Origin: Psammoneis japonica
Taxonomy: Eukaryota
Length of the DNA stretch: 63,059 nucleotides
Assembly (NCBI GenBank): GCA_008632985.1
Contig: QPGO01000120.1
Coordinates: 186,001-249,059 of the forward strand
Direction: 5' to 3'
The notes under the pieces were generated by a model that was not told where the DNA came from, searched no databases, and saw only the letters and a list, made by a program, of their open reading frames with translations. The stretch's first letter is position 1. Every line of letters starts with the position of its first letter. The position numbers and the translations under genes were made by a program. Shown here one piece after another: positions 9,286 to 48,261 of this stretch.

Positions 9286-9339
9286 ATGTGATGATGTAGA
9301 GTATGATGATGTACAACACTCTCTAGCTCTAGTGAGTAG

Positions 9340-13814: not shown

Positions 13815-14549
13815 CGTCTCTCTGAACTCCTTTACAACTCTCCACGACTGCCATGACGCGGATGTTGATTGGTTATGTTGTCAATGTTAGAAGCCGTCGG
13901 CCGTCGGAGGGAAGTTTTGTGACAAGAGGACGTCGCGCGTCACCGGCGCTTGCACTTCGTTTCCTTCGTCAGATTCGATTGTGCTCTCGTAAAAGAACTC
14001 AAACCAGAAATGAGAGGAATTCATTTACATTCATTTGTGTTGCAGTCTACGACGGAGGACGGTCCTCCGGGTGAATCGTCCCGGGCAGCGCTTCACAACT
14101 TCTTGTCTACGTTTACGATGCAATCATCATCCATCATGACCTGACAGCAGGATCCCTTGCGATCGCTTGCAGCCAGCAGTCTGTTTCGATTGGCACACAT
14201 TTTGATGCAGTGTCACCGATGGCCCACTGAGCCCCTGAGACAGAGAAAAGAACTCCACCTGTCACCACCACAATGCTCCGTTGCCACACTGCCTGCCATC
14301 ATTTGCGAACTGCCATCACTGGTTCAGTCGCTCTTTGGATGACGTGCCTTGGATCAGACACTCTCCTGGTCTGACCATGGCCCCCAACATCACACTCCAA
14401 CCTTCCCTGCCCAGAAACCACAAAGCCCAAGGTCATTGTGCAACTGTCTGCTTCATCCGATGCATCATTGCTGTCAAATCCTCCATCGTTGCAGAAAAAT
14501 GGCTTTGTTGCCTGTCACTCTGGATCATTTTGTTGCAAGGGAAAAGATC

Positions 14550-15200
14550 TGTCAATGAATGCGTGGCGCATCAATGATCATTTTCACATCAGACATGAAT
14601 CCAGCCATGCCCTTTGCTCTCTGGCATTTGCCTTCTTTGATGTGCTTGCCACAGCTTTGACAAGTCTGGCAAGCCTTGCACACAAAAGCAAGAGCAACAA
14701 CCCACTTCTTTTTCTCATTGGCAACAATCTCGCTGCACAGAGGGGGGGGCAGCAAGCAGGGAACAGGAGCAGGCAGGCCCAGATGTCAAGGTGTCATTGC
14801 CAAAAATCTTGCTTTCCAGCGTTGAAGCTTGCGGGCACGCTTCGTGCATCTTCCTGCTGCACATCCCATGTCGCTCCAGAGTGACACCTCAGAAAGAGGG
14901 CAAGCATCAACTCTCTGCTGTTGAGCAGCAATGCAGCATTTGGTCAAATGTCTTTTGTGAACCACAACTGGCCAAACCAGACTCTTTGCAGCATGAGAAT
15001 CCATGCCACCTGGCACCGCACCAAAGGAGTCACTGTCCTCTCAACAATCAATCCTGCACTCACAAGAGCCAAGCACAGCATTTGCAGCACACAGCTGCTG
15101 TTGAGTCTCAAGCTCCAACAGTTTGGTCCAGCATGGCTGGATGATTCCATGCAAACAGACAGACACACATGACTTGTTGGATTGCTGAACAGACAATCCT
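14550..15200 (-). pseudogene. Possible protein kinase relic, heavily mutated
   Basis: Weak resemblance only: LWFTKDI*PNAALLLN (cf. HRDIKPENLLL) and DIWA. TpA-depleted. Confidence 0.25.
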
Positions 15201-15399
15201 TGGCTCTCCCTCTCATGCATGCAGATTCTGTCCAACCAAGAGTCAATGAAAGGATCAAGCCATTGCTCTCACAGTTTGGGACAAGTTCAAAGCCTGATTG
15301 CAGCACTTTTCCAGTCTTGGGCCTCAGCCACAATGTGCAACAAACAAACAAAGAAGTGAACCTGACACTTCATCAACCCTGCAACAAACAAACTTTGCC

Positions 15400-16395
15400 A
15401 ACCCCACACTTTCTTCCATGGTTGGCAACAAGAAACAGCTCTCTGATTGAAGGCTTGGTGAGGCAGTCTGCCAGCTGATCCACCTTGATCATCACAATGA
15501 ACTCATGACTGTGTGACCAGAACTGGTGCAGCTGCTTCACCAGCAGAAAACATTTGGTTTGTTCAGTCATGCAACGGTCAGTTGTCACAAGCTGGAAGGG
15601 ACCCCAGCCGTCCTTGAATTTTCCACAAAACACAGAGCAGGATTCAATGTTGCAACAAGCATCAAGAGTCAACACAATCTCTTGGAACATCCTCTTCAAA
15701 GGCAAGAAGCAGGTCCTGAAGGCAAAGGAGGCAGCTTGGTGCTCAGTGTCAAGAGTGGAACATGCAAGAGCAGTTTGGAGTTGGGATTTCCAGACAAAAG
15801 AGCAGGTGTTCAGGGCTGCAAGGTGACTGTTGTGAGAACAAACCAAGCTCAGATCAGAGCCTGGCTCCTGACAGAAGAGACCAGCAATGCTGGTGTCAAC
15901 CCACAAGTCAAGATTAAAGTGCCCATTGAAGACAAGTGCATTCCTCACATGGTTGTGCACAGCTTTTCTTGAGATGCTGCCAGACTGAAGTTTTTGCAGC
16001 AGCAGTGCAAGACTTGGGAGGCAAATTGAAGTGTAGAACTTGGCTCACAGCCAAAGAAATGTCAGGGCAAGTGTTGGCAGACAGATTCAGAAGCATGTCA
16101 ATGACAGAGGGGGGGGTGGGGGTGGCTCCAAGCTTCACCCATCAGCTCACCATGAGGGTCACTGCCAAGAGTGGGAGTTGCCACCACTGGCAGAATGTTG
16201 GGCTTCTTGCCGCTCTGCATCATGCTGGTGGAGCACCTAAAATCATTTGTCAGTCAACCCAGATGATTGGGACAATCTGACAGTTGCGCCATCCTGTTTT
16301 TCAAACTTGATCCCAAGGAACTCAGCAAAGCTGCCTTCCTTGGTCAGATTGTTCCCTTCCTTGCTCTGTGGTCCCTCAACAACCATCTGGTCAAC
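15400..16395 (-). mobile_element. Ty1/copia LTR retrotransposon fragment (RT C-terminus and RNase H)
   Basis: EGSFAEFLGIKFEK, MLLNLSANTCPDISLAVSQV (cf. TRPDIAFAV), WKSQLQTALACSTLDTEHQA (cf. IALST.EAEY.A) and DQLADCLTKP. Confidence 0.85.
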
Positions 16396-16399
16396 AGCA

Positions 16400-17178
16400 G
16401 TTAAATTTGTTGTGAGCTTCTTGAAGCACTGCTGACACATTTTGTTCAAAAGTGATTCAACGTGATCTGCAAACAAACTTGATTCAAGCAGTCAAGTCAA
16501 AGGATCCAATCTCACATTCTGGTGGAAGGCGTGACTGCACCAAGCATTTTTTTGGGGGGGGGGGGGGTCTTTCAGCTGTTTCGTGGTGGTCATTTTCTTT
16601 TGCAATGACAAAGCATCTCTGGCCGCTGCCGCAGTGGGGAGAAAGTGCCCAGTCCAGATGGAACACTCTGGATCACAGCTTGATCTTTTGCCCTGATCAC
16701 CTTTTGCTGCTGGTGCAGAAAGAGGAAGCCTGGCATTGTGTGAAACAGCTGCACCTGGGCACAATTTCCATGTGGTGTGCACTGGTGCCAAGCAAATGTT
16801 GTCAGCTGCAACATGCAGAGGCAACCTGGCCTGCCCTCTTCATCCATCAGCTGAGCAAGCTGAGGAGCAAATTGAAGCATTTTTTACAGTGTTGCGTGCA
16901 AGCAACCAACTTGGACAGAAAGCCCTGCACCACCATCATCCAGCTCATGAAACAGACCATTCTTGTCCAAGGAGACAAACTCCTGGAGCATCTCTGCAAA
17001 GCTTTCTTTTGGAAAACATGGAGGGCAAACCAAGAATGCACGAAGCAGCCAAATCCTGTCCTTGCTGATGCTTCGAGCAAATCTGTTTGTGCAAAGATGA
17101 CAGCACATTGGTTTTTTGAGCTCTTTCTGAAAACCCTCATCCTGAGTGACACCCACATTTTCTGAGGCTCCTGTCTCC
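16400..17178 (-). repeat. TpA-depleted copy of the ankyrin-like fragment
   Basis: Homologous to 8715-9285, with TA>TG/CA and CG>TG/CA changes (e.g. TGTAGAGGTA vs TGCAGAGGCA). Confidence 0.8.
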
Positions 17179-17345
17179 GACGTGTTCCAGCCGCACGTGA
17201 CCCAAATTGTGCACAAAAACAAAATTTTTGCGCGGTCTCTGACTTGTGAACGGTTTTTCACCACCAAAAGCACAGATTTGTTCAAATTCAAATGTTTTGC
17301 AACACCAACAAGACTCGTGTGAGTGTTGCAATGTCACTGTCATTG
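17179..17345 (+). mobile_element. Truncated GAC-terminus MITE, same subfamily as 26062-26349
   Basis: Starts GACGTGTTCCAG and shares TTTCACCACCAAAAGCA...CAACACCAACAAGACTCGTGTGAGTGTTGCAATGTC. No closing TIR found. Confidence 0.7.
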
Positions 17346-17949
17346 TGCCATCTGTGTTTTTCATTGCGACAAATGAATCGTAACACAATGGATGATTTTC
17401 GGTGAAATCATTGCCATCATTTGGATGCCTCCACAATGGTGTTTCCTTGTCTGACACACTTTTCAACAACAAGTCTGATCACTTCACCAGAAGTTTGTGG
17501 GACGACTCTGTCTCTCTCTCTGCACTGGACAAGAATGTGCAAAACCACATTTTGTTCTCTGCAGAGGATGAGCCATCCAAGATGCTTCCAAGGAAAAGTT
17601 TTTGCTGTCCATTGAAAGTGAGAACATGACAAGCTCAACTGAACCACCACTTTTGTCTCAATGTGTCATCAGGGGGGCATTTCACAGTCACTGATTTGCA
17701 CCAGGTTGAACAAACATTGAAGAGCATCTTGATTCACCATTGGGGTGCTCAGAGGCAGGATGTCAACAAGAGCTTTGACAACATTGACAGGAGGGTGGAG
17801 AGCTTGCAAAACAAAACACGGCACATGGGACAAAATCCATTCCCCCCTCCAGAGTTAAATGCAAAGCATGCTCCCCAGATTTTTGACAAGGAGGCCAGCC
17901 TTGCAGTTTTGGCATCAATGATTTGGGTCACCAGATTTCAGCTGTGTTC

Positions 17950-18800
17950 ATCCTGCCTTGAAGAGAGCTGCTCTCACAGTCTCCTGGGCTGCCCCCCTTG
18001 AGTCACGACAAAACCCAGCACATGTTGCCATCAATGACTGCAATGCTCTCACATTGCAGACTGTGGCCACAATGGCGCCAGCTGTGTGCTGACCAATGCC
18101 TGGCAATTTCTCCAATTTGGTGACAGTGGAGGGGATTTCACCACTGAGTTTGTTGAAGACATGCTTTGCCACCTCATGGAGGGGAGCCATGCACTCAGCG
18201 ACAAAAGCCCAGTCCACTCCAGTGTGTGCTGGCCTCCTTGGCACTGGCATTGGTGAGATCCTGGACAGTGGGGAATCTGTTCATCCACTTGCACCAGCAC
18301 AGAATCATGGCCTCCACTTGAGTCTGTTGCAGCATGATGATTTCACTTGCCCAAATGCCTCGGGCTGTGTCCACGGGGCTGTGTTGTTTTCTCGGCTCCG
18401 CGATGTCTCCTTTGTTGTTGTCTTCCTGCAATTGTGTTTCCTCTTTCTTTGTTTTTTTTGTGCAAAGCACTTGCTCATTGTTGTTTGCTTTGGTTTCTTC
18501 TTCTGTTGCCTCTCAGCATGGACGACCACAAAGTTGGCCACACACTTCCCTGCCAGGGAGGAGTGTCGCCGCCCCATGCCACGGCAGTTTGCACCAGCTT
18601 GCTTGATGCCATTGCAGTGGTTTCAACCAGATCTGCATTGCTTCTTGGCTGGAGAACCTGTGAAAATTCAAGCTGTTGTGCTTCGCCCATGATTCCAGAA
18701 AAGGCAGAGTTTTTCCTCCTCTGTCTCTCGGCATGGCTGCCAGTGTCTGCTGTCTGCTGCTGCAGAAGAAATTTTCATTGCCGCTCTGGGCATCATTTTC
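17950..18800 (-). pseudogene. MUTYH: MutY A/G-specific adenine glycosylase pseudogene fragment
   Basis: LQWHQASWCKLPWHG (cf. WY..NRRKLPWR), GIWASEIIMLQQTQV, RFPTVQDL, WSGLGFCR (cf. WAGLGYY.R) and HhH LPGIGQHTAGAI (cf. GIGPYTAGAI). Confidence 0.85.
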
Positions 18801-19106
18801 AAAGTGGATGAATGCCGGTAGCCAACAATGAATCCAACAGAGTGGTTGCCTTTGCTGGAGTCCTGCCTCAAGCAAAGGAGGGAAAGCCGTCTGTGAGGAG
18901 CACAACAGGTGTGCGCAGCGCACGCGACAACGGTCGACGCATGGACTCACGATGGAGAGTGGCGCGCGCCTCGCCGCGTGTGAGAGTGAAGTCAACGATG
19001 CGATATCGATCGACCGCGCATCTTTTTCCATTTTGCGACCCAGTCGTGTTGTCAAGAAGCACGGTGATTTGTGATCGAGATCCCCCAAGCCCATCTAAGC
19101 ACCAAC

Positions 19107-21690
19107 ATGGACTCGAAGATGGCGCCTGAAACCCATCCCAACTACCGCCCTCCGGTTGACATGCCCATCATTGCCCTCGGCTCTCCCAAGCCAGCGAGGA
19201 AGAATGAAATCTCCTGTGGTGGGTTTGTAGCGTCGGATCTCCTTTCGGCCTCCGAGTGCGCCCAGCTCATTGCTGCTGCGGAGAAACATAACCCAACCAA
19301 GGTGGACTGGGAATACTCACCGGACTATCGAGACTGCAATCGTGTCGTTTTGCGTTCCTCACTACTCGCGGAAGCTCTCTACAAGCGCCTGCTTCCCTTG
19401 CTGACAACTGACGAATGCGAGAGCGTCCGTCCTTTTGGTTTTGATGGAATTGGAAGTTGGCGTCCACGCAAGCTCAATCAAGTCGTTCGGGTCTCGCGGT
19501 ACGATGTGGGCGGACACTTTCAACCCCATCGAGATGGAGCCTTTGTTGAGAACGACGACTTGCGGTCAGTATACACTGTCCTAGTGTATCTCAATCAAGC
19601 CCCGGCCTTTGGCGGCGGAAATACAGCGATTCATCTTGATTCTGAGACAAAAATTATCGAGCCCGTGACTGGAAGCGCCCTCATCATGACGCACGATACG
19701 TTGCATTCGGGAGAGGCCGTCACGTCTGGACACAAGTACATTGCTCGTTTTGACCTCATGTTTCACCGTCTTGGTGGAGGAATGACAGAGGCAGAACTTG
19801 CTCAACTACCGGACCGGCAGTTAGCCGAGCGACTGTATGCATCAAGCATCACCAAGCAGCGCAATGGTGACCCAAAAGGATCTACAGAGGACTACGTCCA
19901 GGCGCTGAAAATTCAAGCCAAACTACCAAGCTCGAGTCCTGCACCTCTTTATCCCGAGAATACGATACTTGACAATCTTGGTAAAGACAATTTTTTGCTT
20001 TGTCTTCGCTTCCTTTGTTTACAAGATATCGCCAATGCATCAGCCGTGTGTCGGTCGTGGCACGCGGCATGTTCCAGTGGCATATTGTGGCGAGAACTCT
20101 TTGTGTTTCGTTGGGCAGCGCTGAGTTGTGCCGAGTCTTCGGTCGCTGATGAGACACCACTTGCGGTTTCATTGCCACTGAACCGTTCTGATGGACGGGA
20201 TGTCCCGGTTCATCGCGTCTACGCTACTGTACTCGAGCAAAAGCCAGAACTCTGGCCAAGGAATGATAGCCAAGCATTTTTGAAAGAACAGCTGTACGGG
20301 AACCGAGTCCCGAATGGATACATGTTCAGCTCATTGCCCTTGTCAAAATTTACGCTTGTTGATCGATGTCGATATGGTTGGAAAATGTTTCATGTCGCTG
20401 TTCGGGACGGCGCAATCCACTTTATGGAATACAATCCTAATGTCGAGAGAGCTTGGATGAGTCGATATGATGCGTCGAGCGACATTGATCTTGATGTTCC
20501 ACCTCCAATCAGGCTCGATGCCGATGCTGACATTTCGTTTGCTATTAGACACTTGAACGCAAAAAATGTGGATGCGTGTATTGTAAAACTGCCAGGAACT
20601 GAGCAGAATCTTGCATTGTGTAGTGATGACCCACGGATCAAGAATCGTTATTGGCACTATTCTTTTGCGGGTGTTCTCCAAGATATTGGTCGCGTGTTGG
20701 TGGCGCATCAGACCGAAAGAGCCTTGAGGTTTGGTGATCCAGTCATTCGTTGTGACGCTAAGACCAAGCAATGGAAGACGGCTTATATGCGTCGTCACAC
20801 CGCGGAAAGATTCTTTGATACGGTTTCAATTGACATCGGATCGAAATTTACAAAGTTTGCATCTCAAGCAACGACTAACGACTCACTCACTCCAAGAGGA
20901 ACCGACAGTGGTAGCTTTCCGAGCTTAGTCTGTCGACACCGAGGGCACCTATGGTCAGCAGGACACGGTTTGGAAAATCACAAGGTTGGTGAATCATGCC
21001 TGGACCGCACTGATGATGCTACACGCCCATTCAACGACATTGGAATCCCAGACTGCCACACCATGGGCATTATCTGTGCACATGTGGTTGAAAGATCTCC
21101 CGCTGTGCGGCCCAATCGACAAAGATTTTGTATCCGAGAAACATGTGCAGAGCATCCAATCAACATGGTCGAGCCTGCTCTTGGCCTCACGGAGGAGGTA
21201 CGCCAGCAGTTGACACTTAAGCTAGCCTCCTGGAACGTTCCTTTTGTCGGCTTTGTCAATGGTGCAGTGGCGGCACTCTCTTACGGCGACAAACCTAAAA
21301 AGAATGGAATTGTAGCAATGTTGGGCGGTGCTAACAGCGCAGTTGTGCGGGTTACAGATGGAGTGGCGGATGTTGCAAACGGGGTGCAGCTGCATGTTGA
21401 CGGTGATACTGATCCTCGTTTTGTAGCGAAAGAGGTGCTTTCAGCCACAGCTTAAGTTCAGAAATCGTCAATAAGGTCTTTACCTGTTTTGTTGACCGGG
21501 GGTGGCGCCACAGATCCATTGTTGCCTCGATCAAATGTCACATTCCAGGAGCATATGTGGCAAGTCCTGAATGTGAAAGGCACCTTGATGCGGTTCAAGG
21601 TGCACACATCCTGGCAAATTTGTCGGATGGGCGGAAGCACTTCAGGTGCGTGTTGAACTTGATGTGGGGGGCTCAAGTTGGAACCAACTA
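19107..21690 (+). CDS. 2OG-Fe(II) prolyl-hydroxylase-like / F-box / actin-like fusion protein (open to 21455, actin-like tail continues through frameshifts)
   Basis: RYDVGGHFQPHRDG..YTVLVYLN..GGNT..HSGEAVTSGHKYIARFDL. F-box FLCLQDIANASAVCRSWHAACSSGILWRELF. Actin-like SIDIGSKFTKF, MVEP, VLLTGGG and DAVQGAHILANL. Confidence 0.7.
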
Positions 21691-22113
21691 ATAAGTTGCA
21701 CAACACATGCATGCAGTTCATCATTTTCATGCCTAAATTCACCAACGGCAGGGCACGTATGCCGCTTTTTCCGTTTAAGCCTTAATGTAGAATTGTTTCT
21801 CGAAGCACATCAATCATGTGGGTTCTCTCTGTCCTTTTGGGGTGAAAGAACTTTGCAATTCCATGGCATTGAAGCGTGATGAATTACCCTCAAAAATCTC
21901 CGAGATGTGGAGGTTGGCTCAAGCGACTGATGAGATGAGGACTTGCTTGCTTAAGGTTGGGGACATGTGGTCTTCTCTCCAACATTCTCGAACAATGTGT
22001 CACAACACAAGATGTTGTCATTGTGGTGCAACCCAATCCACATGTGCGCCAATGCAAGATTTTACAAAGCTTGCCACCCTTTTAGAACTTCACTGCTACA
22101 TCTTTGCCACCTT

Positions 22114-23083
22114 TGTGGAGGAGTCCTTGCTCCGGTTATCTTGTGGTGCAGAGACCATGAACAGAACAAAGCATCTCTGGCCACTGCTGCAACAGGAAGC
22201 AAGCCGCAGATGTTTTGCCCTGACCACCTTTTGCCAATGGTGCAAAATGCCAAAGCCTGGCAGCATTGTGCAAAAACAGCTGTTGTGTCTGGGTGCAATT
22301 GCCAAATGGTGTGCACCAGTGCCAAGAAAATTGTCACCGGCTGTGATGTGCAGATGCAACTTGTGCCACCCTCTTCATTCTTCATCCATTGGCTGCACAA
22401 GCTGAGGAGCAACTTGAAGCACATTTTTGACAGCATCTTGTGCAAGCAAGCAACTTGGACAGAAAACCATGCACCACAAGCTGCCAGAAAGCTTGTGAAT
22501 TGTGCATGTGCTTTGTTTGGAAATCTCTCAAGCAAAGCCATTTTTGCCCATGGAGACAAAATCCTGAAGCATCTCCACAAGCTTTCTTCAGAAAACCTGC
22601 ACCCAAGGCTCCTGTCTCCATCAGGCTTTTTTTCCAATGCACCCACAATGGCACATTGTTGCATGACTTGATCTTCAACAATGAGTCTGGTTGCTTTGCC
22701 TTGACCAAAAGATGCACAAAATCTTGGAAAAGATGTTGAAGGACAGCTCTCTCTCTCTCTCTCTCTTAATTGAATGAACAGAAAATTGGTGCAGCCAATT
22801 CTCTGTCAAATGTGACAAACAAGAAGATGCAAGCAGCCAATGTGGAGTGCTTGACAGGATTTTTGTCCAACTGTTTCAGTTGACAGCAGGCACAACAACA
22901 TCAGCTGAAGTCAGGAGAATGAAACTTTCATGGTGACTTCATCAGCGGCTGGCTGCTGTTGTTCATGTGGTTGAGGTTGTTGCACCAAAATGATCTGGGG
23001 GGCTGGGGGGGGGGGGGGGTGAGGGGCAGACTGAGGGCACGATTGCAATTTGAGTGGCTTGAATCATGCACTGCTTTCCACAT
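22114..23083 (+). repeat. Left copy of a ~1-kb direct repeat flanking the Penelope-like element (ankyrin-like fragment, (CT)n, hammerhead unit)
   Basis: Near-identical to 27837-28863, starting TGTGGAGGAGTCCT. Confidence 0.9.
22903..22950 (-). ncRNA. Type I hammerhead ribozyme-like motif (variant)
   Basis: Minus strand AGCCG-CUGAUGA-A-GU-CACC-AU-GAAA-GUU..GAC-UU-CAGCU. Confidence 0.55.
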
Positions 23084-23285
23084 GATCTCTCTCTTTCTCT
23101 CTCTCTCTTTCTCTGTGTTTTGGTCTCTCTTTCCATCTCTCTCTCTCTCTCGAATGAACGATCAAAATTGGCGAAGCCAATTTTCCGTCAAATGAGACAA
23201 ACAATGGCAATGCAAGCAGCCAAGGCAGAGCCACTTAATCGGATGTTTGTCCAACTGTTTCAGCAATGGCAGGCACAACAACGTT

Positions 23286-23333
23286 GGCCAAAGTCAGGAG
23301 AATGAGACTTTCGCGGTGGCTTCATCAGTGGCC
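23286..23333 (-). ncRNA. Type I hammerhead ribozyme in the PLE terminal repeat
   Basis: Minus strand GGCCA-CUGAUGA-A-GC-CACC-GC-GAAA-GUC-UCAUUCUCCU-GAC-UU-UGGCC. Stems I, II and III all pair. Confidence 0.7.
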
Positions 23334-26061
23334 GGCTGTTGTTGTTGACGTGCGGTGGGTGTTGTTGCATTAAAAAGATCCAAAGAAGGACAGACGGGTT
23401 GATTAAATTGATTCAATTCAAGTCAAGTTGTCCTCTCTCTCTCTCTCTCTCTCTCAGTGGCCTCCATGTTTGCAGTCCAACAGGATGAAACTGGGGGGCC
23501 ATGGGAGACTCGGAGCACATGGTGGGAAAGGAGATTTCCAAGATTGCAGGAGCGACTGTGACGAACAATCATGCAGTTGAGGCCGATGCATTGTCGGGCG
23601 TGATTTCGAAGGTTTGAGAGAGGTTGAGAGCAGGGAGGGTTGGCCATTGCACCTTTCCACAATTTCTGCAGTTCTCTGGATGGCGGGTTGTTTGGATGGT
23701 GAGGAAGGTGCAGGAAGACTGGGTTTGACTGGGGCTCTTCTGTTGTTCTGTCAGCATTGTCAAAGATGAGGTCATGTGCTTTTCGGAAGAGCAGTTGTAG
23801 TTTGCTGGGTTTGCAACCCCGGGCTTGCAGTCGAAGGCAGAGCAGGCTTGCTTTTGCTTTTGCGTTGGTGGTGTCGGAGCACAGGTTTTTAAAGCAGTGG
23901 AGCACACCCACAATGAGGCTGGTGAGTGCTCCAGGCGGGTGAGCTGAGTGAGGTGGGATGCACATGCACAGATTCATTTCTTTTTCGTAGAGGGTGGTGT
24001 GGATGTGGGGGCCTTGGAGCGAGATTGTCAGGTCCATGAAGTTAACTTGGTGGCTTTGCAGGCTCGTGATCCAAGCAATGTCAAAGTCATTCAGTCTGGA
24101 GGCAAATGCTTCCCAGGTGGCGGCATCAGTGGCAGTGTCAACAATGTGCCAAATGCCAAAGACGTCATCAACAAATCATTTGCAATGAAAAAGCTGGGAG
24201 CTAAACTCCTCCAGGAGCATGTCTTCGTGGAGTGCACAGTGTGAGGTGGCACATGGAGGGGCGGGTGGTGTGCCCATGGTGGCTCCGTTGCGCTGGTGCC
24301 AAGTGGTGTCTCCAAAGGTGAACACATTGTTTTCCATCACAATTTGGAGTGCTTTGATGAGGGCATCCATTGGCACGTCGTCACATTTGTGTTCATGACG
24401 TCAGAGGCAGGAGGCAATCAATCAAAATGCTTTTCTGGTGGGTGTGTTAGAGCAGCAGGCCTCGGCATTGGATGTGAAGAGGAGGCAATGCGATGGCACC
24501 TCCATTTGGACAAGTGCTTGTTTCAGGTCCAGGGAGCTCTTGAAGTGTGATCGTTGGCAGCAAGCAACTTTCTGGAGCTTGTCATCCACCCAGATGCCCA
24601 AGCCGTAGAGCAGGCTGCCGCTGGTGGAGACGATCGGTCGGGATCGGAGCGGAGGGGGCTTGTGCACCTTTAGAGCAAGGCAGAAGATGGGGAGTGGGTC
24701 TTTGTCAGTTTCAAGACAATGTTTCAGATGCTTGCGTTCCATCGGGGCAAGGCCAGTTTTGTGTGTCTTGAGCCAGTCATTGAGGAGGTTTTTGATGCGG
24801 TGTTCTTGGGTTCCAGCTTCAAACTCACTCAAAAATCGACACGTGTTGGCATCATTGAGATGATCGCGAAATGCCATCTTGATGCATTCGGTCTTTTTGA
24901 TGATGGCGGGCCCCAGGTTCTTGTTGCATTGGGCCATTGTGAAGTCGTCTTGTTTGTGAAGAAAGGCCAGGGCGTGTTGTTGGTGAGGCAGTGGGTTGGT
25001 TCTGCCGCGGCGTTTCACAAAGAGGTTGGTGACTTGTGATTTAAAAGTGGTGCATCGACAGGTGACAATGTTGGCAAGTTTCCAGGAAGGGGGGGTTCAG
25101 TTGGAACGGAGGCACATCCTGGGATTGCAATCTCCATCATCGTTGTTGACAGGTGCATTGGTGAAGTGATCTCGTTTGTCAAGGTCTTGTTTGAATCTTC
25201 CAAGTGCATGTTCTTGGATCTTGGAGGACTTCCCGTTGTTGGTGAAGTGTGGAGCAGGAACAAATTTCAAGCTGAGACCAAGCAGTGATTGGAGGTTCTT
25301 TGGTGGTTGTTTGGTGGTGGTGCAATCATGGAAGGCAAGGTGTGAAGGCCTGTCAAAGCAGCGCCAGGCAGGCATGTGTCGCAGGTGGGTGCAGGCATTG
25401 TGTCGGATTGTGTGAGATGGGTCGGCGATGAATCCGCATGTGTGATGGATTTGGCACTCTGTTGCCTCTAGTGCCTGTTCCGATTGTTGTTGGAGTGCTG
25501 CTGCTTCTTTTTCGATTGCTGTTTCGATTTGGAGTGGCGGCGACTGTTTTTGTTTGCGCTTGTGGTGTCGTTGTCGGCATCGTCAGCTTCGCCGTCACGT
25601 TGAGCACGTTGTTTCTTCACATGAGCCGATGAGGCACCTTTGCCCTTTTCTTTTTGTGATGAGGCACAGGCGGTGTAGTTTCGGCCCCTCGGGTTGTTTG
25701 ACTGCTGTGCTTTGATGGACTTGAGGCATTGAGCAAGCGTGCTGACCTGTTGGGAGAGTTTTTTGGCATTTTTCTCGGTCTCCTTGCGGATGAGCTCTTG
25801 GAGGGTGGGAGGGTCGACTGCAGCTTTGCCATCAATTTCCATGTTTGTGCTCTCGGCAGCCTTGGCATCGAAGTGTTCCTTGTTGAGTTTCTTCAATTGG
25901 AGGCTGATGTCGTGTTTTCTGTTTGGATGCCAGGCAGTCAGTCCAGGGAGACACGAAGATGCATTCAAGCGCCCGGAAGATCTTGCTGAGTTCAGTCTCG
26001 ATTTTCTGTTGCGCAGCGGTGATTTGTGGAGCGGCGGGTGCTGGTGCCATTTCTTGTGCAA

Positions 26062-26349
26062 GACGTGTTCCAGCTGCACGCGAACCAAATCGTGCGCAAA
26101 AACGACATTTGCGCGATTTTTGCACGGTCCCCAACTTGCGATCGAACTTTCACCACCAAAAGCATGGATTTGTGCAAACACAAACAATGTTTTGCAACAC
26201 CAACAAGACTCGTGTGAGTGTTGCAATGTCGCTGTTGTTGTCAAATCTTTTGAGCATTTCATGTCAAAATGCTCCATGCACTAAAACACACACAAGCTGC
26301 ACTCAAAATCGATCATCGTTTTGTGCATCACCTGGGACTGGAACACGTC
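26062..26349 (+). mobile_element. MITE (288 bp) nested in PLE ORF1
   Basis: TIRs GACGTGTTCCAG...CTGGAACACGTC. Flanks GCAA / GTAA form a 4-bp TSD with one TA>CA change. Confidence 0.9.
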
Positions 26350-26490
26350 GTAAGGAACAAGGAGTCACTGGCTCAGTCGTCTTGAGTTTGAGACTGTCGA
26401 GCAGTTGGAGCAACCAGCGGTTGCGGCAGGTCAGCAACAGCATTTGCTGTCTTGCACTTGGTGAGAAACACGTTGAGGTTCTCGACCTTG

Positions 26491-26936
26491 TGCAATGTGC
26501 AGCCACTGATGAGAGTCAATGTATCACGGCGACGTGTTACAGCCTTTAAATGTCACAAAGGGCGTGACAAAAATAACCTTTTGTCTGCATGCATGCTGCG
26601 TTGTGAATTCACAGCGGAGTGGCACATCGTAACCACCAGGCAGGAGGCCAGGGGTTCGAAACCCGAGTGGGAGTTGTCTGCAGCAACGTTGATCACTGTC
26701 GAACGCGTAAAACTCTGTGCAGTTCTGTGTGTTCCTTCGTACGTACCCACACTGTTCCGCCAAAACCGTGCAGTGTCAGCACACGTTAGTAAAGAGCCGC
26801 ATGGACGCGTGATGCATGGGGAGGAGTGCAACATGCAGCTGCCAATGAGAGTCAATGCATCACGGCGACGTGTTGCAGCCTTTAAATGTCACAAAGGGCG
26901 TGACAAAAATGACCTTTTGTCTGCATGCATGCTGCA
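26491..26936 (+). mobile_element. TRIM (miniature non-autonomous LTR element) nested in PLE ORF1
   Basis: 110-bp LTRs at 26491-26600 and 26827-26936 (TG...CA). Polypurine tract GGGGAGGAG before the 3' LTR. CTTG TSD on both sides. Confidence 0.9.
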
Positions 26937-27656
26937 CTTGATGTGCTTTGGCAGCATTTCATTTCAGCGGTCAAGCAGGGTGACCACTGCGGTGTTGACA
27001 GGTGTGGTGATGCTGTCGGCCACAGCAAAGCTTTCAGTTGTGAGTCGGATGGCTTTCGTGCAGGACTCCAAAATTTCTTCTTGGATGACGTTGAGTTCAA
27101 TCCTGGTGGCTTGGACAACTTGCTTTTTGAAGGCTTTTTGGTTGGCAGAGATGAGGTCATTGGTTTCCTCCTGCAGAGCCAAAAACTCCTGGCTCTGTTC
27201 AGCGGTTTTCGACATTTGGAATTTGAAATTGATTCGGGCTGAGCGGGGGATGAACTCTTCATCGCTTTCCATTCATTGGACATGAAAGGCCTTGTCATGG
27301 GCCTTGGCTTGCAGTTGGATTTGGTTGATGGCAAGCTTCTCGAGGATGGTGGCCATTTCTGGTTGGAGCGACATGATGTGGTCCCCGATGCATTGGGTGG
27401 CGGTGGCAAGGGGTGTCCTTGTTTGCTGGTTGGCTGGGTTCACCGCAGTCGAATCGAAGCGCGTGTGTTTTGGGTTGGTGGTCTCGGTCGCAGCATCCAC
27501 TGTTGTCTTTGTGCTCTCTCTCTCTCGAACAATCAAAATTGGCAAAGCCAATTTTCCGTCAAATGTGACAAACAATGGCAACGCAAGCAGCCAAGGCAGA
27601 GCCACTCAATCGGACATTTGTCCAACCATTTCAGCAACAGCAGGCACAACAACGTT

Positions 27657-27704
27657 GGCCAAAGTCAGGAGAATGAGACTTTCGCGGTGGCTTCATCAGT
27701 GGCC
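27657..27704 (-). ncRNA. Type I hammerhead ribozyme in the PLE terminal repeat
   Basis: Identical core and stems to 23286-23333. Confidence 0.7.
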
Positions 27705-27800
27705 GGCTGTTGTTGTCAACTTGCAGCGGGCATTGTTGCATTAAAAAGATCCAAAGAAGGACAGATGGGTTGACTAAATTGGTTCAGTTCAAGTCAAGTT

Positions 27801-27836
<36 letters not shown>

Positions 27837-27840
<4 letters not shown>

Positions 27841-29211: not shown

Positions 29212-29244
<33 letters not shown>

Positions 29245-29246
<2 letters not shown>

Positions 29247-33317: not shown

Positions 33318-33349
33318 TGAGCAGCAGTGGCAGTGGCAGTTTTGTTGTC

Positions 33350-34700: not shown

Positions 34701-34907
34701 CCATTGCATCATGTCGATCATTTGTCATCTGGAGAAGATGCTTTTGATGCAAGTCGGACGGCAGCAACCCTCCGTTGCACTCACCTGGCTTGTCCGAAGT
34801 CGCCATGGTTGCCATGTTGCAAGTGCGGCGAGTGCTGTTTTTGGCAGAAAATCACGAGCTACATTGTCCAAATTCGAGCTAAAAAAGTAGAGACTGACCA
34901 CCCTTAA

Positions 34908-35307
34908 GACGCGTTCCAGCTCTAGCAGGTGGGACCTCGCACTGCTGAACTGTGACATCAACAGTTTTTTGGATCGCGTCGCATGTCGCGCACGCACATT
35001 TCTGCGTGTGACATTCTACGAAATTGTTTCATGCTCCCTGTTTTGCGAAGCCAAAGGCTTTCTATTTTCAACATTTGTGAGAATGAAAATGCGCTGGGTG
35101 TGTTGTTTAATGTCCACAGAATGTGCCCGGGCAAACTGTCAATGATGCACTGCAAGCATGAAGGAGGAGATGCGTTCGTAAAACAGCCTCTTTTTCTGTT
35201 GGCAATCATTTGTGTTTTCATTGCAGTGTAAATTTACTGCGGAGCTCGCACGTAGAATTCCATGGGCCCAATGTCACACGGAGTCCCACCCAGGACTGGA
35301 ACCCGTC
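34908..35307 (+). mobile_element. MITE (400 bp), GAC...GTC family
   Basis: TIRs GACGCGTTCCAG..GGTGGGAC / GTCCCACC..CTGGAACCCGTC. TTAA TSD shared with the Kolobok right end. Confidence 0.92.
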
Positions 35308-35310
35308 TTA

Positions 35311-36300
35311 AAATGCAAATTTTCACAGTCTTGCTGTGCAGGTGGAGCTGGCAAATCTCAAGCTCAATCTCAGCCACAAGAGCCTGGCAGCAGGAGCCCT
35401 CTCATTTTTCATCATGTTGATGTGTTCTTGTTAAGATGCAAATTTGCACAGTCCTGCTGTGCAGGTGGAGCTGACAAATCTCAAGCTCAATCTCAGCCAC
35501 AAGAGTGCAGCAGCAGGAGCCCTCAGAGAAACCAAGGCTGTGCTGCCGCAGCTGCTGCAGCGCCAGCTGATGGTCCCAACCCAGCAACTGCTGCCACTGC
35601 TGATGCCTCCACAATGACAAAGCCGCTGCCCACCATGCCAATGCGGGCCCGCACCACTCTCCAGCCATTGCAACCAAAAATCTTGAATTTCTCATGTGTT
35701 GGCACAAAATTCCTGCGACTCTTGTTGTTGCATGCCCTGGCACCCAATGGAGTCTCCCACAGCCATCCCAAGACAACTGGTCACTTGCACTGTCACACAG
35801 ATGGCTCCATGGTCTCTGCAGCACAGGTGTGTTGGCTGGGCCAAAGAAGCCCCCAGTCATGTCAGAAAGAAAAGGTGCCACACAATTGACACAAGACAAG
35901 GCCTTCTTTGCTCCCCAACCAAGGTTGTTGTTGGCTCTCCTGGGACACAATGGAATCACCCAAGGCCAGCAAAAGATGTCTGGGCACTTGTGCTGTCACA
36001 CAGAAAGCTCCCTTGCCTCTGCAGGTCAGGGGTGGCTGGGGGGCACCACAGCAAGCCGATCACATCAGAAAGAAAAGGGGATGCATCAGCTCAAGACAAG
36101 GCTTTTCCTTTCCAACCATCATTGTTGTTGCCTCCTCCCAGACCCAACAGAGTCTCTTGTGCCCACCTCCAGACAACTGAGTGCTTGCACCATCACACAG
36201 ATGGCTCCCTTGTCTTTCTTGCAGGTTGAGCCACCAAAAGCCATCCCAAGACAATGGAGTGCTTGCACTGTCACACAGATGGTTCACTTGTCTTTGCAGG
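35311..36300 (+). repeat. Degenerate local direct repeats
   Basis: A ~90-bp unit ATGCAAATTT..GGTGGAGCTG..CAGGAGCCCT at ~35312 and ~35436. A CCCAAGACAA..CTTGCACTGTCACACAGATGG-like unit near 35766, 35980, 36168 and 36245. Confidence 0.75.
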
Positions 36301-38149
36301 TTGGCTGGTGCCTCCACACCTTGTGCAGCTGGGCATCTTCTTGTGTGGAGGATTCATGCAAGGGGCTGCTGCTGCTGCTGCCCAAGACAAGGCTTGCAGC
36401 TTTCAAAATCAAGAGTGCAAAGACACCACAGTTGGGCCAAGAACCCACTCAACAAATGCAGGTGGAGTGCATTCTTTGGGGTCCATGTCATGATGCAGGT
36501 GGCAGCAACTCAAGACAATGTGCATTGGTGGTGATGATGATGATCTGGGCCACCACCACATGCTCCATTTTAGTTTCTCAAGTGGCGCTGGCCTGTGCAT
36601 CATGCACCATCTACCCGGCAAGCTTGTTGCTCCAACTGGAGACACCAGCAAGACATGTCATCAAACTCACCACCAGAGTGAACCCCTTGGAACTGAGGAT
36701 GTGTGGCTGATGAACTCTGGCCATTGTTTTCATTTGTGGCAATGGCAAGAGGGAAGAAGATGAGACATTCTTCCCAGTCTCTGTCGCATGGCAATGGCTT
36801 TCCAAGCAGTGGCGCCATTGCTTGCTTTGTGAGATGCAAAGACCATGCCTTGGCAAGTTTAAATTGGCTGGCTTTGGCAGAGAGCAGCAAGCTGACAGAG
36901 GCGGCATGACACCCAACTGCAGTGCTCAGCAGAAATCCAACAGCAAATGGACAAAAATGATGGACGGCAATTGCAAACCAGGTCCAGCACAGGACAGTTG
37001 AGCATGAAAAAGTGAGAAGATGTGGCATCACACTTCATCACATGGAAGTTGCACAAGTGCTTTTTTCACCATGGTCTTTTCCAAGATGGATCTCAGTCTC
37101 TAAATGCATGCTCTGCTCTTCCTCGTCTTTGTCACCAACAGCTCCATGTCACCACATTCCAGAACAAGATTTGCAAGCCATTTCCTGGGCAACCCTCAAT
37201 TCTGCAGACAAGCTTGCCAGGCCATGGTCTTCCAAAATTTTTGTGCCAGACAGTCTGCATTGGTTTGCTTGACTGTGCAAGCAAGTCCAAAACAGCCACA
37301 AGTTGTTCATCAATGGCCCGACACACAGCTGAGCAATCATTGAGCAACAAACAACAAAGAAAGAGACGGCCACACAAACTTGCTTTGAAAAACAAACAAA
37401 CAAAAGCTTGCCTGCATCCATCACTTTTGCCCCCCCCCCCCATCCACATTTCAAATCCAACAGCATCAAACATGACAACCGTTTCCAAAAATGTTCTTTC
37501 CAAAGGAAGAGCAACTTCTTAAAAAGTGGCCCCTGAATCCAAGCAACAGGCATTGCTGCAACAATGTGCTGCCACACCATCAATGGTGCTGCACTCTCTG
37601 TTGATTCTGATGCAACAAATGAGCACAGCCAGTGACATGAGTTGGTGTGCAACAATGCCAATGCATTGCATGAAATGTGTTGAGCCACAAATGACAAATG
37701 CAACTTGCTTTGGCCCTGAAACAAAAGCTCGCCTGCATCTCTTTTGCCCCCCTCCCACAATTCAAAGCATGGTTCACAGCTGCAATGTCTTGAGCAGTGG
37801 AACAACAGAGCAACACTTTGAATGCAGCCAAGTTGCTGCAGCAGAAGAAGCAGCAACAACAGGAAGCACATCATTGAAATCAAAAATGCAGTTGGACAAG
37901 AACGGAAGACATCACCTGCCACGGCGATTCTGTCACAATGGCAAAGACAATCACCACATCATTGCAGCTGTTGGCATCAATGTGGTGTGTGGTGTGGTGT
38001 GAAAAAATGTGCATCTGCTGACCGCGAGTTGAGCCACGCAGGTGTCAACAACTTGAAAAGGGAAAAAATGATCAAATTGTTTGACTCAATGTTTGCAAAA
38101 ATGATGCACAATTGACAACTGCGCAAATTGAAGATCGGTGAACAGAGTT

Positions 38150-39150
38150 AGTGCGTGTGCAACAATTTTGTTTGTCAACAAGTTTCATTCTTGACAAGCA
38201 CTGAAACATGTTGCAGACAAAAGTTGTGGCATGCAAGCAAATTTCTGAGGTGCCATCTCATGTGCAAGCAACTGCAGCAGACAATCATGCAATTGAGTCC
38301 AACACATTGTTGTGCATGGTTGCTGAGGTTTGAGAGGGGTTTGTGAGGGGGGGTCAGCCATTGTTTGACAAGAGTGTGCAAAACCGCACCTTGTTCTCCA
38401 GAAGATGACCCATGTGTGCACTGCAAGTGAGAACTTGACAAGCTCAGCTGGGCCACTGTGTGTGTCAACCCACCGTCAGGGGGTGTTTCAAAGTCACTGC
38501 TTTGCACCGTGAGGTCAAAACATTGAGGAACACACAAAACACTTTCTTGTCCTCCAGAAGATGAGCCATGAGTTGCCCACAATAAAGTGGTTTTGTTGTC
38601 CATTGAAAGCAAGAATTTGACAAGCTCAGCTGAGCCACCACACCTCAAAAACAGGCCGTTGTGCTCTGGATGATTGTGTTGAGAAACATGTTGAGGCACA
38701 TCTTGTTGCTTGTCCTGCTGGAGTGGCAAGTTTTGATGACATTGACAAGAGGATGAAGCTTGCAAAATGCACGGTTCATGAGTGCAAGTCAAGATCCACC
38801 ATCCCACTCCAGAGTCAAGTGCAAAGTTTTGGAGCACACAAAGCTTTTTGTGGAAGGGGCTCTCCCCAAAACATGGGCTTTGACCAAGTGCTGTGTGGAT
38901 GTCCACCAATCACAAAAAGTGATTGTCCCATGTTTGAGCCAGTTTGTTTCATGTGCAGGTTTTTGCTCTACAATGTGGGAAGTGATGGACCCCCATTGCC
39001 ATTGTCGCTCGTTTTGGGCTGCTGGCAAATTCAATGTCATCATCTCCTGCAGCTCTGTCTTTGCACACACATCTCTTGGAGAGCACAAGAACTGCAAATG
39101 CCAAGTCTTCAGATTTCTTTGGTTTCTCTCATGTCTGGACCAATGGTGGT
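38150..39150 (-). mobile_element. Older Penelope-like RT remnant interrupted by another repeat (38380-38650, similar to 17560-17720)
   Basis: PPHKPLSNLSNHAQQCVGLNCMIVCCS..LRNLLA matches the C-terminus of the element at 23480-23650. Confidence 0.6.
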
Positions 39151-39649
39151 GCAATTGAGATTGGAGGAGTGATGAAGTGATGGTGAGCATGTGGTTGGCA
39201 CCGGCGCCATTTTGCCCTCTTCCTTTGGTGCTGCTGGTGGCTGGCTGCGATGATGTGACAACAATGGAGCACTTGACATGAATGGTTGCCATTGTCTTTA
39301 CATTGCGCTTTTGTCTTTGAAATAGATTGCTTCAGAGACCAGAAGAAGCAGATGATGTGTTGTTTGCGCTTCCTCTTCCTGCAACACCCACACGAACTCA
39401 CTCGAGAGTAGAGAGCAAACACACAGACGTTCGTCGCGCAACTCGCGCGATGCCACGTCACGACTGCTCGTGCAACATAACCCGTTAGAAGAGTTCGGAG
39501 GTTCGAGTTCGAGCCGACGAGCAACGGTGGAGATCGATTGGAAATGAGGAGATGAGTGAGGATCGCGACGGCATATTTTCCATTGACTCTATCCAGTATA
39601 CTCATCTCTTGTCGATACTAAAGCCATAAGTTACACTGGTTATACAAAA

Positions 39650-46473: not shown

Positions 46474-47035
46474 TGTGATTCTAACGTTTACAGAAACTTG
46501 AAATGGAAAAAGATGATACCGTGTAGAATTGGAATTCAGAATGAGAAGACTCCAAGACAGATACAGTATGGTAGAGAAAGCGAACTCCGACCCTGATTGA
46601 AACCCGGAGACCGAGCGATCCACGATGCATGCATGACGTCAGCATTACCTCATCCTCATTCATTCGCAATGACTCAAACAACCCACCCCTTCGCAAATGG
46701 AGAATGTGGTTTTGATGTCATGGTGATGTGTTGTTCATGTCATGAATTCACAGCCATGCTGCACTTGGTTGTAAGTTGTCTTCCTTGGGGCCTGAAGCTT
46801 CATCGGCATTGCAGCACACTGAAAAATGTCGAGAAGATGATGACTGCATGCACAAAGAGCACTCGAAAGGAGTTGGATGAGGAAGTGAAGGAGCGCCTGA
46901 AGAAAGACTGAAAAAGAATCTGCTCCATTGCAAGAAACGTTGGCATGCTGGTTTGGCACACATGCATTCAGCCCAGAACTCCAAATGCTGCAGTTTGACG
47001 AGCTTTGAGTGTGAAGATAATTTGGGGACCTCGCT

Positions 47036-47432
47036 GATGCGCTCCAGCTCTGGGTGGGACCTCGCAGTGCTGCACTGTGATGTCAAGAGTTTTTTGGATC
47101 ACATCGCATGTTGCGCACATGGATTTCTGCATGTGATGTTCTACGAAATTGGCTCACACTCCCCATTTTGCGAAGCCAAAGGCTTTCCATTTTCAACATT
47201 TGTGAGGATGAAAATGCTCTGGGTGTGTTCTTTGATGTCTGCAGAATGTGCCTGGGCAAACTGTTGATGATGTGCCACAAGTGTGAAGGAGGAGACACGT
47301 TCGTAAAATTGCCTCTTTTTCTGTTGGCGATCATGCACATTTTCATTGCTCAACAAATTTGCTGCGGAGCTCGCACGTAGAATTCTGCAGGCCCAATGTC
47401 ACACGGAGTCCCACCTGGGTCTGGCACCCGTC
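47036..47432 (+). mobile_element. MITE (397 bp), GAC...GTC family, heavily mutated
   Basis: GATGCGCTCCAG..GGTGGGAC / GTCCCACCTGGGTCTGGCACCCGTC. CGCT TSD. Confidence 0.92.
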
Positions 47433-48261
47433 CGCTGGTGAACCGACAAGCATCGCTGACTTCTTCTTTGATTTTGACTGAACACTCAAGCAGTCGTCAC
47501 AAATCTTCCTCTAAACAGAGCATCTTCTTGGACACATCGAAGATCCGCAAATGTGCTCCAATTGCATTGAATCTGGCGGAAGCCAACACCATGTGAAATT
47601 CGTTTGAAGAGCGGCTTGCCTTTGCGCAGCAGGTTGAGGAAAGCCTGAAATTTGAGCGGTTGGCCTTTTTGGACAAATGAGACGGTGCGTTGTTCATTTC
47701 ATGACAGCAGTGCACTTTGCAATGCCAAGTTTGTCAAGCACAGCATGTTGATGAGAAGCGTTGAGTGGAAGGGCTGAAACAATCAAACGAAGTGGAGGGA
47801 ACATCTGGCTGGGAACAATGGCAGCAAAAAGGCCGTCTGTGCCCTGCCAACTTCGATGGTGGGTACGTTCCGCATGGAGAATTGGCCGGATGGGCCCTTT
47901 GCGTTGCAGTGCATTGTCACGCTCCTGTTGTGGAAAGAGGCCTGTCCCGTTCCTGCCACAAATTTGTCAGTTGGGCTTGCCGATGAGCCCATGCGCCACG
48001 CCACGGCGGCATCTACATTAGTTAAAAAAAAAAAAGCCGCCTAAAATTGTAGCATTCATCGAGTCGAAGATTGCCGATGAGACGAGGATTAATTTAAACC
48101 CGTGTGCATTGACAGAAATTGAGAATCCTCATCAACGTTAAGCAAAATGGGTGAAATGATCCGAATTCGTGAATTCCCTCGCCATGCGAGGTCATAAGCT
48201 GCAACTGCTCAACAAACAAACAAAAATGGCTGCGAGCTTAGAGGTCTTCTGTGACCTTCGT

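Follow-up and report, generated by a model that had tools for sequence, protein, structure and literature searches.

In fungi, repeats are known to undergo targeted hypermutation from C to T. In repeat-induced point mutation (RIP), described in Neurospora and other ascomycetes, duplication of a sequence above a few hundred base pairs (bp) triggers C-to-T changes at CpA that create TpA and lower GC content, and the mutated DNA is recognised by a TpA/ApT index above about 0.89 and a (CpA+TpG)/(ApC+GpT) index below about 1.03. RIP is further associated with a cytosine methyltransferase of the RID/DIM-2 type and with a premeiotic stage. Here we describe a stretch of 63,059 nucleotides from the diatom Psammoneis japonica (assembly GCA_008632985.1, contig QPGO01000120.1, positions 186,001 to 249,059 of the forward strand; hereafter the window, numbered from its first letter) that contains islands from which TpA has been removed through A:T-to-G:C changes, and we ask which sequences flank the few TpA that remain. 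The islands resemble RIP in that kilobase tracts of repeat-derived DNA with sharp borders carry transitions at one preferred dinucleotide with a graded preference for its flanks, both strands are hit, and adjacent reading frames (here fragments of UvrD-like and HhH-GPD frames) are caught. However, the host is a diatom, TpA is destroyed while GC content stays at 0.49, a linked 1-kb duplicate is unmutated, and the indices are inverted, with TpA/ApT at 87/1,534 = 0.06 and (CpA+TpG)/(ApC+GpT) at 5,911/3,071 = 1.9. With these values, C-to-T change at CpA as in fungal RIP was rejected as the source of the islands. Full-text literature searches and term look-ups in diatom papers (supplements excluded) found no published description of TpA-destroying hypermutation, in diatoms or elsewhere.

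Four other systems invite comparison. The first is the decay of CpG in methylated transposons by deamination of 5-methylcytosine (5mC), with which we group the TCG hypermutation of repeats that is reportedly found in Microbotryum and other basidiomycetes. As in such decay, CpG in the diatom repeats becomes TpG/CpA, to 0.38 of background density and with little dependence on flanks. In contrast to it, TpA is lost as well, and more strongly (negative logarithm of the density ratio 2.36 versus 0.96), a change that 5mC deamination cannot make; with CpG reduced to 0.38 but TpA to 0.09, CpG decay alone was discarded. The second, ADAR hypermutation of viral and retroelement RNA, likewise gives clustered A-to-G changes with a nearest-neighbour preference, and accepts A as well as U on the 5' side; editing of RNA would leave its mark on a single strand. 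The third, mutagenesis by DNA polymerase eta (Pol eta), shares with the islands A-to-G change at an A that follows T, and its WA motif includes AA. The fourth comprises the tRNA A34 deaminases, TadA and ADAT2-ADAT3, which always meet U before the target A (the native context of TadA being U-A-C), much as the target A of the islands follows T; we know of no described natural role for them in mutating genomic repeats.

Islands were defined as runs with at most 2 TA per 200 bp. The twelve islands obtained in this way (Table 1) total 27,818 bp and hold 87 TpA and 626 CpG, as compared with 1,163 TpA and 2,079 CpG in the remaining 35,241 bp. In a 500-bp profile, island stretches have 0-3 TpA where about 30 are expected, 1-20 CpG, and 95-133 TG+CA where about 62 are expected. 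Base composition is the same as that of the background, with GC of 0.46-0.53 per island. The ratio of island to background density is 0.09 for TA, 0.38 for CG and 1.39 for CA/TG, and lies between 0.88 and 1.21 for all other dinucleotides; among the NA dinucleotides TA alone is depleted (AA/TT 1.05, CA 1.39, GA 0.92).

Comparison of repeat copies shows that the depletion is due to mutation, by a process, apparently at the level of DNA, that converts TpA, and more slowly CpG, to TpG/CpA by transitions across kilobase tracts of repeat-derived sequence. When an unmutated copy (8715-9290) is aligned to the island copy at 16401-16951 and to two more island copies, TA or CG in the former is TG or CA in the latter. 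Repeat copies are 72-83% identical at the level of bases versus 87-96% in purine/pyrimidine code, and therefore differ almost only by transitions. Alignment in this code recovers homology between mutated repeats that is missed at the base level, and would aid transposon annotation in genomes of this kind. Furthermore, a TG in one copy opposite a CA in the other requires an ancestor with TA or CG, and such differences are found at 34 of the 130 shared pyrimidine-purine (Y-R) sites of the 748-bp pair 23425-24190 and 29215-30000, at 16 sites in a 398-bp transposon pair and at 10 in a 252-bp pair. Contigs of the public run X1 differ from positions 8700-28699 of the window by 241 A>G, 286 C>T, 266 G>A and 211 T>C changes, versus 33-69 for each transversion. 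Contigs built from exact words of the same run, at a depth of 31-35, agree with island stretches of 523-763 bp to within 0-1 differences, which rules out an artefact of basecalling or assembly at modified bases, with the proviso that the run may be the assembly's own source. A second run, X2, has no coverage over most island bins, from which we draw no conclusion.

The share of TG in TG+CA is 0.47-0.58 per island, so both strands are targeted. The near-identical duplicates 22090-23460 and 27505-28895 have most of their TG/CA states in common and differ at TA, CG and TG-versus-CA sites (Table 1). Mutation thus went on after duplication, and repeated or continuous action fits better than a single burst. 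Since TG and CA are about equal and change continued after a genomic duplication, the substrate would have been the genomic DNA itself and not an RNA intermediate. A unit of about 260 bp that opens with a run of CT dinucleotides occurs five times in two islands (22740-23410, 27505-27780 and 28535-29120), and its copies record successive losses of TA.

The survival bias towards TTA/TAA is real, strong and local, and reveals an extended motif of the mutator. The original prediction, made from the letters of the window, had named sixteen surviving TpA, held TTA/TAA to be protected, and proposed that the mutator has a preference wider than the dinucleotide. All sixteen sites exist, eight with TA in TTAA, TTTA or TAAA (16402, 17856, 22767, 23371, 25042, 26547, 36860 and 37520) and eight with TA in CGTA (17381, 23988, 24606, 33007, 35179, 35253, 47304 and 47378). 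Three of them lie outside the islands, namely 26547, within a direct repeat of 113 bp that adjoins a high-copy insertion of normal TA content, and 35179 and 35253, within a small transposon that is partly mutated and has an island on either side. Protection of TTA/TAA was confirmed in that 68 of the 87 island TpA are TTA or TAA, versus 475 of 1,163 outside. TA is followed by A at 52 of the 87 island sites versus 22% outside (p 5e-16), and preceded by T at 42 of them versus 24% outside (p 2e-6). For instance, TTAA accounts for 26/87 island sites versus 58/1,163 outside, and CTAA for 14/87 versus 42/1,163. At the other extreme, sites with a purine before and a pyrimidine after (R-TA-Y) number 2/87 versus 334/1,163; ATAC, CTAT and GTAT have no island occurrence, and ATAT and GTAC have one each. 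Trinucleotide density ratios between island and background follow the same gradation, being 0.03 for TAT/ATA, 0.05 for TAC/GTA, 0.11 for TAG/CTA and 0.22 for TAA/TTA.

The bias does not depend on one way of counting or on one island. Survival of TpA was expressed relative to the count of all Y-R steps with identical flanks, a number that the process cannot alter where the 5' flank is a pyrimidine and the 3' flank a purine, and is 0.63 for TTAA, 0.49 for CTAA, 0.17 for TTAG, at most 0.11 for the others and 0-0.02 for R-TA-Y, while survival of CpG is nearly flat across flanks (0.27-0.54). Sites with a pyrimidine before and a purine after (Y-TA-R) make up 5/10, 21/27, 12/23 and 12/27 of the TpA in four island groups, versus 195/1,163 outside, such that the bias is present in all four. 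It also persists when islands are defined by TG+CA density alone, at three thresholds. A flat context model, which the original prediction had named as the outcome that would speak against it, is rejected under a background expectation (likelihood-ratio chi2 103.8, df 3, p 2e-22) as well as under a uniform one (chi2 77.4, p 1e-16), two TA having been dropped from these tests as copies of others in a recent duplicate.

A simple rule accounts for the gradation. If each TA is treated as two T-A-N half-sites, one per strand, whose survival multiplies, a strand-symmetric model with three parameters gives a relative survival by 3' base of 1 for A, 0.50 for G, 0.19 for C and 0.11 for T (goodness of fit p 0.16). 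On the assumption of exponential decay, the density ratios of 0.57 for TTAA and 0.0076 for R-TA-Y correspond to a difference in rate of about nine-fold, with CpG (0.38) in between. The hit rate in the half-site 5'-T-A-N-3' is thus highest when N is T, at least as high as for C, followed by G and then A, in proportions of about 9 : 7 : 3.5 : 1, and A at +2 and +3 lowers it further. Enrichment of A is 0.54, 0.49 and 0.39 at +1, +2 and +3 and has vanished by +6, with TAAA and TAGA enriched within TAA and TAG; because the effect of flanks is limited in this way, the footprint is a few bases wide. TTAA and TTTAAA persist because they present two poor half-sites, and R-TA-Y is almost gone because it presents two good ones. 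The proposal of a preference wider than the dinucleotide therefore stands, survival being set by positions +1 to +3 of each half-site over a roughly nine-fold range of rates from TAA to TAT. Such a rule would be the footprint of an enzyme, of a chemistry that we infer, which recognises a few bases of either strand separately.

The TpA that remain in the islands would be ancestral sites that have so far escaped. Four sites could be polarised with at least three copies, 28310 against 22589 and about 17010, and 23371, 23236 and 22767 within the 260-bp internal repeat; parsimony makes TA the ancestral state at all four, the sister copies having TG or CA. Where the ancestor is known, TTAA was retained in 2 of 3 cases and other contexts in 3 of 45 (Fisher p 0.025). 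These data come from the 8715 family in two independent mutated lineages, from seven end sites of a small transposon in two mutated copies, and from the 113-bp direct repeat; they agree with the composition test, as small numbers rather than as a genome-wide test. Of 20 informative cases, 14 have the product, TG or CA, that the better half-site would give (one-sided p 0.058), a result that is suggestive only. Trinucleotide bookkeeping, another route to product direction, was dropped because the sums for 3' T do not balance.

It could be argued that island TA are not survivors at all but arose anew from CA/TG, by ordinary or TC-biased C-to-T change (TCA to TTA), so that their context would reflect origin rather than protection. 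A source for them exists in the 5,911 CA/TG of the islands, a cytosine deaminase preferring TC would yield TTA/TAA, and the near-identical duplicates differ at 5 TA/TG/CA sites. However, all four polarisable sites are ancestrally TA, and the TTAA at 8716 and the TTTAAA at 26547 each stand in the less mutated member of a pair and have been retained in the mutated one. Uniform regeneration from island TG/CA predicts 6.3 TTAA and 20 R-TA-Y and is rejected (G 91.5, df 15, p 5e-13), and even a steady state under turnover would still require context-dependent removal to produce the bias. This origin of island TA is very unlikely.

The bias could also be inherited from the ancestors of the repeats, if these were rich in TTAA/TAAA to begin with, or result from patchy mutation that skipped AT-rich micro-patches. 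In the four unmutated repeat copies TTAA is indeed somewhat more frequent (8/72) than in the rest of the window (58/1,163). Yet the island bias remains when measured against those 72 TA, with Y-TA-R at 50/87 versus 13/72 (p 4e-7), R-TA-Y at 2/87 versus 22/72 (p 5e-7), and TTAA in excess as well (p 0.006). Moreover, the flank effect extends over +1 to +3 and is gone by +6, and CpG density around survivors that do not adjoin a CpG equals the island average (1.88 versus 1.82 per 82 bp). Taken together with these values, an ancestral or patchy cause is improbable in the extreme. Target-site duplication of later insertions was ruled out as a general cause of TTAA, the 4-bp duplications of the small transposon family being variable in sequence.

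For TpA next to a CpG the case is different. The original prediction had read CGTA/TACG as protected too, and suggested that a neighbouring, possibly methylated CpG blocks the mutator. The first part stands to the extent that ten island TA lie in CGTA/TACG, above an expectation of 2.4-5.9, but the excess is weak and its p value (2e-4 to 0.12) depends on the null. Per-island independence gives an expectation of 5.2 (p 0.04) and conditioning on context gives 2.4 (p 2e-4); when denser CpG nearby is allowed for, 3.5 are expected (p 0.003), and when the island at 46668-47919 is left out in addition, 6 are observed for 3.3 expected (p 0.12). A CpG occupies the adjacent offset in 10 of 174 half-sites (5.7%) versus 2.5% at offsets 3-30 (p 0.012), and outside the islands, too, a CpG is more frequent at the adjacent offset than at offsets 3-30, by a factor of 1.37. 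Four of the eight CGTA examples reduce to two positions of a single small transposon, each present in two copies of it (35179/47304 and 35253/47378).

The second part, which would have 5mC at +1 of the bottom-strand half-site shield TpA from the enzyme, fared worse. Besides the excess under the first three nulls, it can draw on TACG forming 10 of the 26 surviving TAC half-sites where a fraction of 0.106 is expected (p 2e-4). Against the raw background fraction of 180/702, however, that excess is not significant (p 0.17), and the overall excess, of about two- to four-fold, is gone under the strictest null. CpG-adjacent survivors lie in surroundings denser in CpG (2.7 versus 1.8-1.9 per 82 bp), and the general flank rule already favours the seven CGTA survivors, because all of them carry a 3' purine. 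In the conserved ends of the small transposon, four of five ancestral CpG-adjacent TA were lost in both mutated copies, the retained one being CGTAG, and three of the four lost sites sit beside a CpG that is still intact in one of these copies (M1). A methylated shield is thus an unlikely cause of survival, and a CpG neighbour is neither needed nor sufficient for protection, with at best a minor or modest effect.

The best overall explanation, and probably the correct one, is that island TpA are ancestral escapees of a DNA-level transition process at TpA and CpG that reads local flanks and would most likely be the work of an adenine deaminase. The flank rule is the sole clue to the enzyme that can be had from the sequence itself. 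It excludes Pol eta-like and ADAR-like signatures and would suit either a TadA/ADAT2-like deaminase or an enzyme directed at thymine. Comparison with Pol eta and adenine deaminase signatures, as the original prediction had proposed, gave no match to Pol eta (AA/TT 1.05 versus TA 0.09), which moreover is unconnected with kilobase tracts and with the loss of CpG, and did give a match to the 5' T requirement of TadA/ADAT2. ADAR-type RNA hypermutation was rejected on the undepleted AA/TT, the near-equal share of both strands and the change that continued after genomic duplication.

The same prediction had taken survival at CGTA/TACG to argue against an enzyme with the native preference of TadA. 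That argument fails and should be reversed, since TAC and TAT are the best targets, with TAC/GTA at 0.05, TAT/ATA at 0.03 and AA/TT at 1.05. The strict 5' T and the 3' pyrimidine preference are closer to the U-A-C of tRNA A34 deaminases than to the WA motif of Pol eta or to ADAR. The TadA/ADAT2 signature of a target A after T is present, TA alone being depleted among NA dinucleotides, and it identifies a signature rather than an enzyme. TACG is not more depleted than TACH (10/180 versus 16/522). A requirement for G at +2 is ruled out, an exclusion that does not extend to the enzyme family.

The enzyme that would leave this footprint is most likely a DNA adenine deaminase, converting A to inosine, which is read as G, and related to the tRNA A34 deaminases TadA/ADAT2; deamination of cytosine at CpG would be due either to this enzyme or to a partner activity. 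A relative of these deaminases is our preferred candidate, a preference held tentatively. Passages of a review (PMC11802342) describe deamination of C in single-stranded DNA by the ADAT2/3 of a trypanosome, and of A as well as C in DNA by that of amphioxus; the paired A and C transition signature of the islands would match such activities. That this diatom lineage has a natural DNA adenine deaminase, possibly acting on both A and C, derived from tRNA A34 enzymes and aimed at silenced repeats as a genome defence, is possible but on balance doubtful. If true, the T-A-[T>C>G>A] rule with its protection by A-tracts would represent the footprint that this enzyme leaves in vivo, and nature would have its own equivalent of the adenine base editors used in the laboratory as well as a mirror image of fungal RIP.

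Alternatively, the attacked base may be thymine. An oxygenase, for example, could make 5-hydroxymethyluracil (5hmU) at TpA, with mispairing and T-to-C change as the result and a 5'-flank preference of A at least equal to G, then C, then T. Both base J in trypanosome telomeres and 5hmU in dinoflagellates occur at T in TpA. Strand-symmetric counts make the two readings mathematically identical, and the TG and CA products are about equal. However, no such enzyme or base is known to us in diatoms, a literature search having found none, and loss of CpG needs a separate explanation unless the same oxygenase acts on 5mC. A thymine-directed enzyme is, in our estimate, rather unlikely.

Several observations weigh against an adenine deaminase that reads local flanks. 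With respect to the enzyme, TAT suffers no less than TAC and there is no preference for G at +2, unlike the native U-A-C-G context of TadA; no deaminase was found among the scanned genes of the window, the genome beyond it not having been searched; and A-to-G on one strand is T-to-C on the other, so that thymine-directed chemistry fits the counts equally. With respect to survival, measurement was mainly against a composition proxy rather than ancestral family-wide NNNTANNN counts, and just 48 site-observations have a known ancestor. The bookkeeping of trinucleotides lost and gained is unbalanced for 3' T (1,046 lost versus 574 gained), which makes the background an imperfect stand-in for the ancestor, and the test of product direction is not significant at 0.05. 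With respect to targeting, a 994-bp tandem duplication (1519-2513 and 2512-3503, + strand), 91% identical between copies, is not hypermutated, a very high-copy stretch of about 450 bp (about 26439-26887) is TA-normal, and some island parts, including the single-copy UvrD-like and HhH-GPD frames, are at single-copy depth.

The trigger does not appear to be simply duplication, because the tandem repeat and the high-copy stretch are spared while single-copy frames lie in islands. The tandem copies differ by 57 transitions and 32 transversions, have 17 TA and 54 CG in common, and lie inside the 1,189-aa XPG-Chromo frame. Many island parts within 8700-28699 are highly repeated, at a depth of 500-38,000 in run X1 versus 55-100, and some island parts are at single-copy depth.

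Table 1. Positions in the window of the TA-depleted islands and of the repeat copies used as references for mutation
Positions	Strand	Feature	Basis
5298-5812		Small TA-depleted island, 1 TA	TA density profile
8715-9290	+	Unmutated relative, 21 TA; ancestor proxy for mutated repeats 16401-16951, 22100-22515 and 27825-28235	Alignment
9507-11007		TA/CG-depleted island over 3' part of UvrD-like helicase frame	TA/CG density profile
14149-19128		TA/CG-depleted island, 10 TA and 87 CG in 4,980 bp; contains sites 16402, 17381, 17856	TA/CG density profile
16401-16951	+	Mutated copy; 15 of 16 aligned ancestral TA gone, the single one retained being TTAA at 16402	Alignment
22090-23460	+	Segment with a second copy at 27505-28895 (93-98% identity); differences at 5 TA, 12 CG and 6 TG-versus-CA sites	Alignment
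22184-26438		TA/CG-depleted island, 17 TA and 130 CG in 4,255 bp	TA/CG density profile
26490-26602	+	113-bp direct repeat, less mutated copy, 4 TA	Alignment to 26826-26938
26826-26938	+	113-bp direct repeat, more mutated copy; GTAT, TTAC and ATAA lost, TTTAAA retained	Alignment to 26490-26602
26888-30586		TA/CG-depleted island, 10 TA and 59 CG in 3,699 bp	TA/CG density profile
30797-34788		TA/CG-depleted island, 13 TA and 120 CG in 3,992 bp	TA/CG density profile
34908-35307	+	Small transposon copy M1, terminal inverted repeats, partly mutated; CGTA sites 35179 and 35253	Alignment
35354-39309		TA/CG-depleted island, 10 TA and 38 CG in 3,956 bp	TA/CG density profile
46668-47919		Partly depleted island, 7 TA and 43 CG in 1,252 bp; 4 of 10 CpG-adjacent survivors	TA/CG density profile
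47036-47432	+	Small transposon copy M2, partly mutated; CGTA sites 47304 and 47378, equivalent to 35179 and 35253 of M1	Alignment
51332-52064		Small TA-depleted island, 3 TA	TA density profile
52072-52461	+	Small transposon copy U1, TA-normal, 11 TA	Alignment
52452-52962		Small TA-depleted island, 3 TA, between two inverted unmutated small-transposon copies	TA density profile
53009-53397	-	Small transposon copy U2, TA-normal, 29 TA	Alignment
53426-54817		TA-depleted island, 3 TA	TA density profile
59041-60072		TA-depleted island, 1 TA	TA density profile

The small transposon is present in four copies of 390-400 bp with terminal inverted repeats, flanked by 4-bp duplications that vary (AAAA, GCGT, TTAA and CGCT), and falls into two subfamilies that differ in their interior. 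Its two TA-normal copies are mutually inverted and adjoin the island at 52452-52962. The TA-normal stretch at about 26439-26887 lies in island DNA, between the two 113-bp direct repeats, at a k-mer depth in run X1 of about 36,000 versus 55-100 elsewhere, and carries a tRNA-like GGTTCGAAACC box; ARAGORN and Rfam, run on this element and on the whole window, returned nothing. Possibly this is a short element, present in very many copies, that the mutator leaves alone.

Outside the islands, the long open reading frames are eukaryotic and encode a TOM40/porin-family protein, an F-box and 2OG oxygenase protein, an alpha-kinase with VWA, PEP carboxylase, an MRS2-type transporter and the XPG-Chromo nuclease. 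Identity of the TOM40-like protein to diatom proteins is 60-73%, and the named matches are from Attheya, Fistulifera, Seminavis, Skeletonema and Cylindrotheca; a protein-atlas comparison of the PEP carboxylase gave no information on taxonomy. Judged by this content and similarity, the window is nuclear DNA of a gene-dense diatom, for which the protein collection holds no close sequenced relative. Relatives found through TOM40 in metagenome contigs (23 loci, 4 of them longer than 4 kb) have no island, a result that is little informative as these contigs are gene-dense.

Pfam was run on 115 island frames of at least 90 aa, on 99 of the 171 island frames of 55-89 aa, and on 6 frames of the UvrD-like region at 9340-11574. 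The 214 island frames gave no transposon protein domain, only HhH-GPD/HHH and weak UvrD fragments. The UvrD-like helicase frame (9340-11574, - strand) is TA-normal in its 5' part (11179-11574), which has a Walker A motif, while its 3' two-thirds lie inside the island at 9507-11007 and are split into several frames; its depth is single-copy. At 17951-18512 (- strand), HhH-GPD and HHH motifs of a base-excision glycosylase are found in two overlapping frames in a fully TA-free island, an unusual location for a DNA repair glycosylase, and these frames probably represent a mutated pseudogene. The gene for the 2OG-Fe(II) oxygenase and F-box protein (19071-21455, + strand) is intact and flanked by two islands, with sharp borders on both sides.

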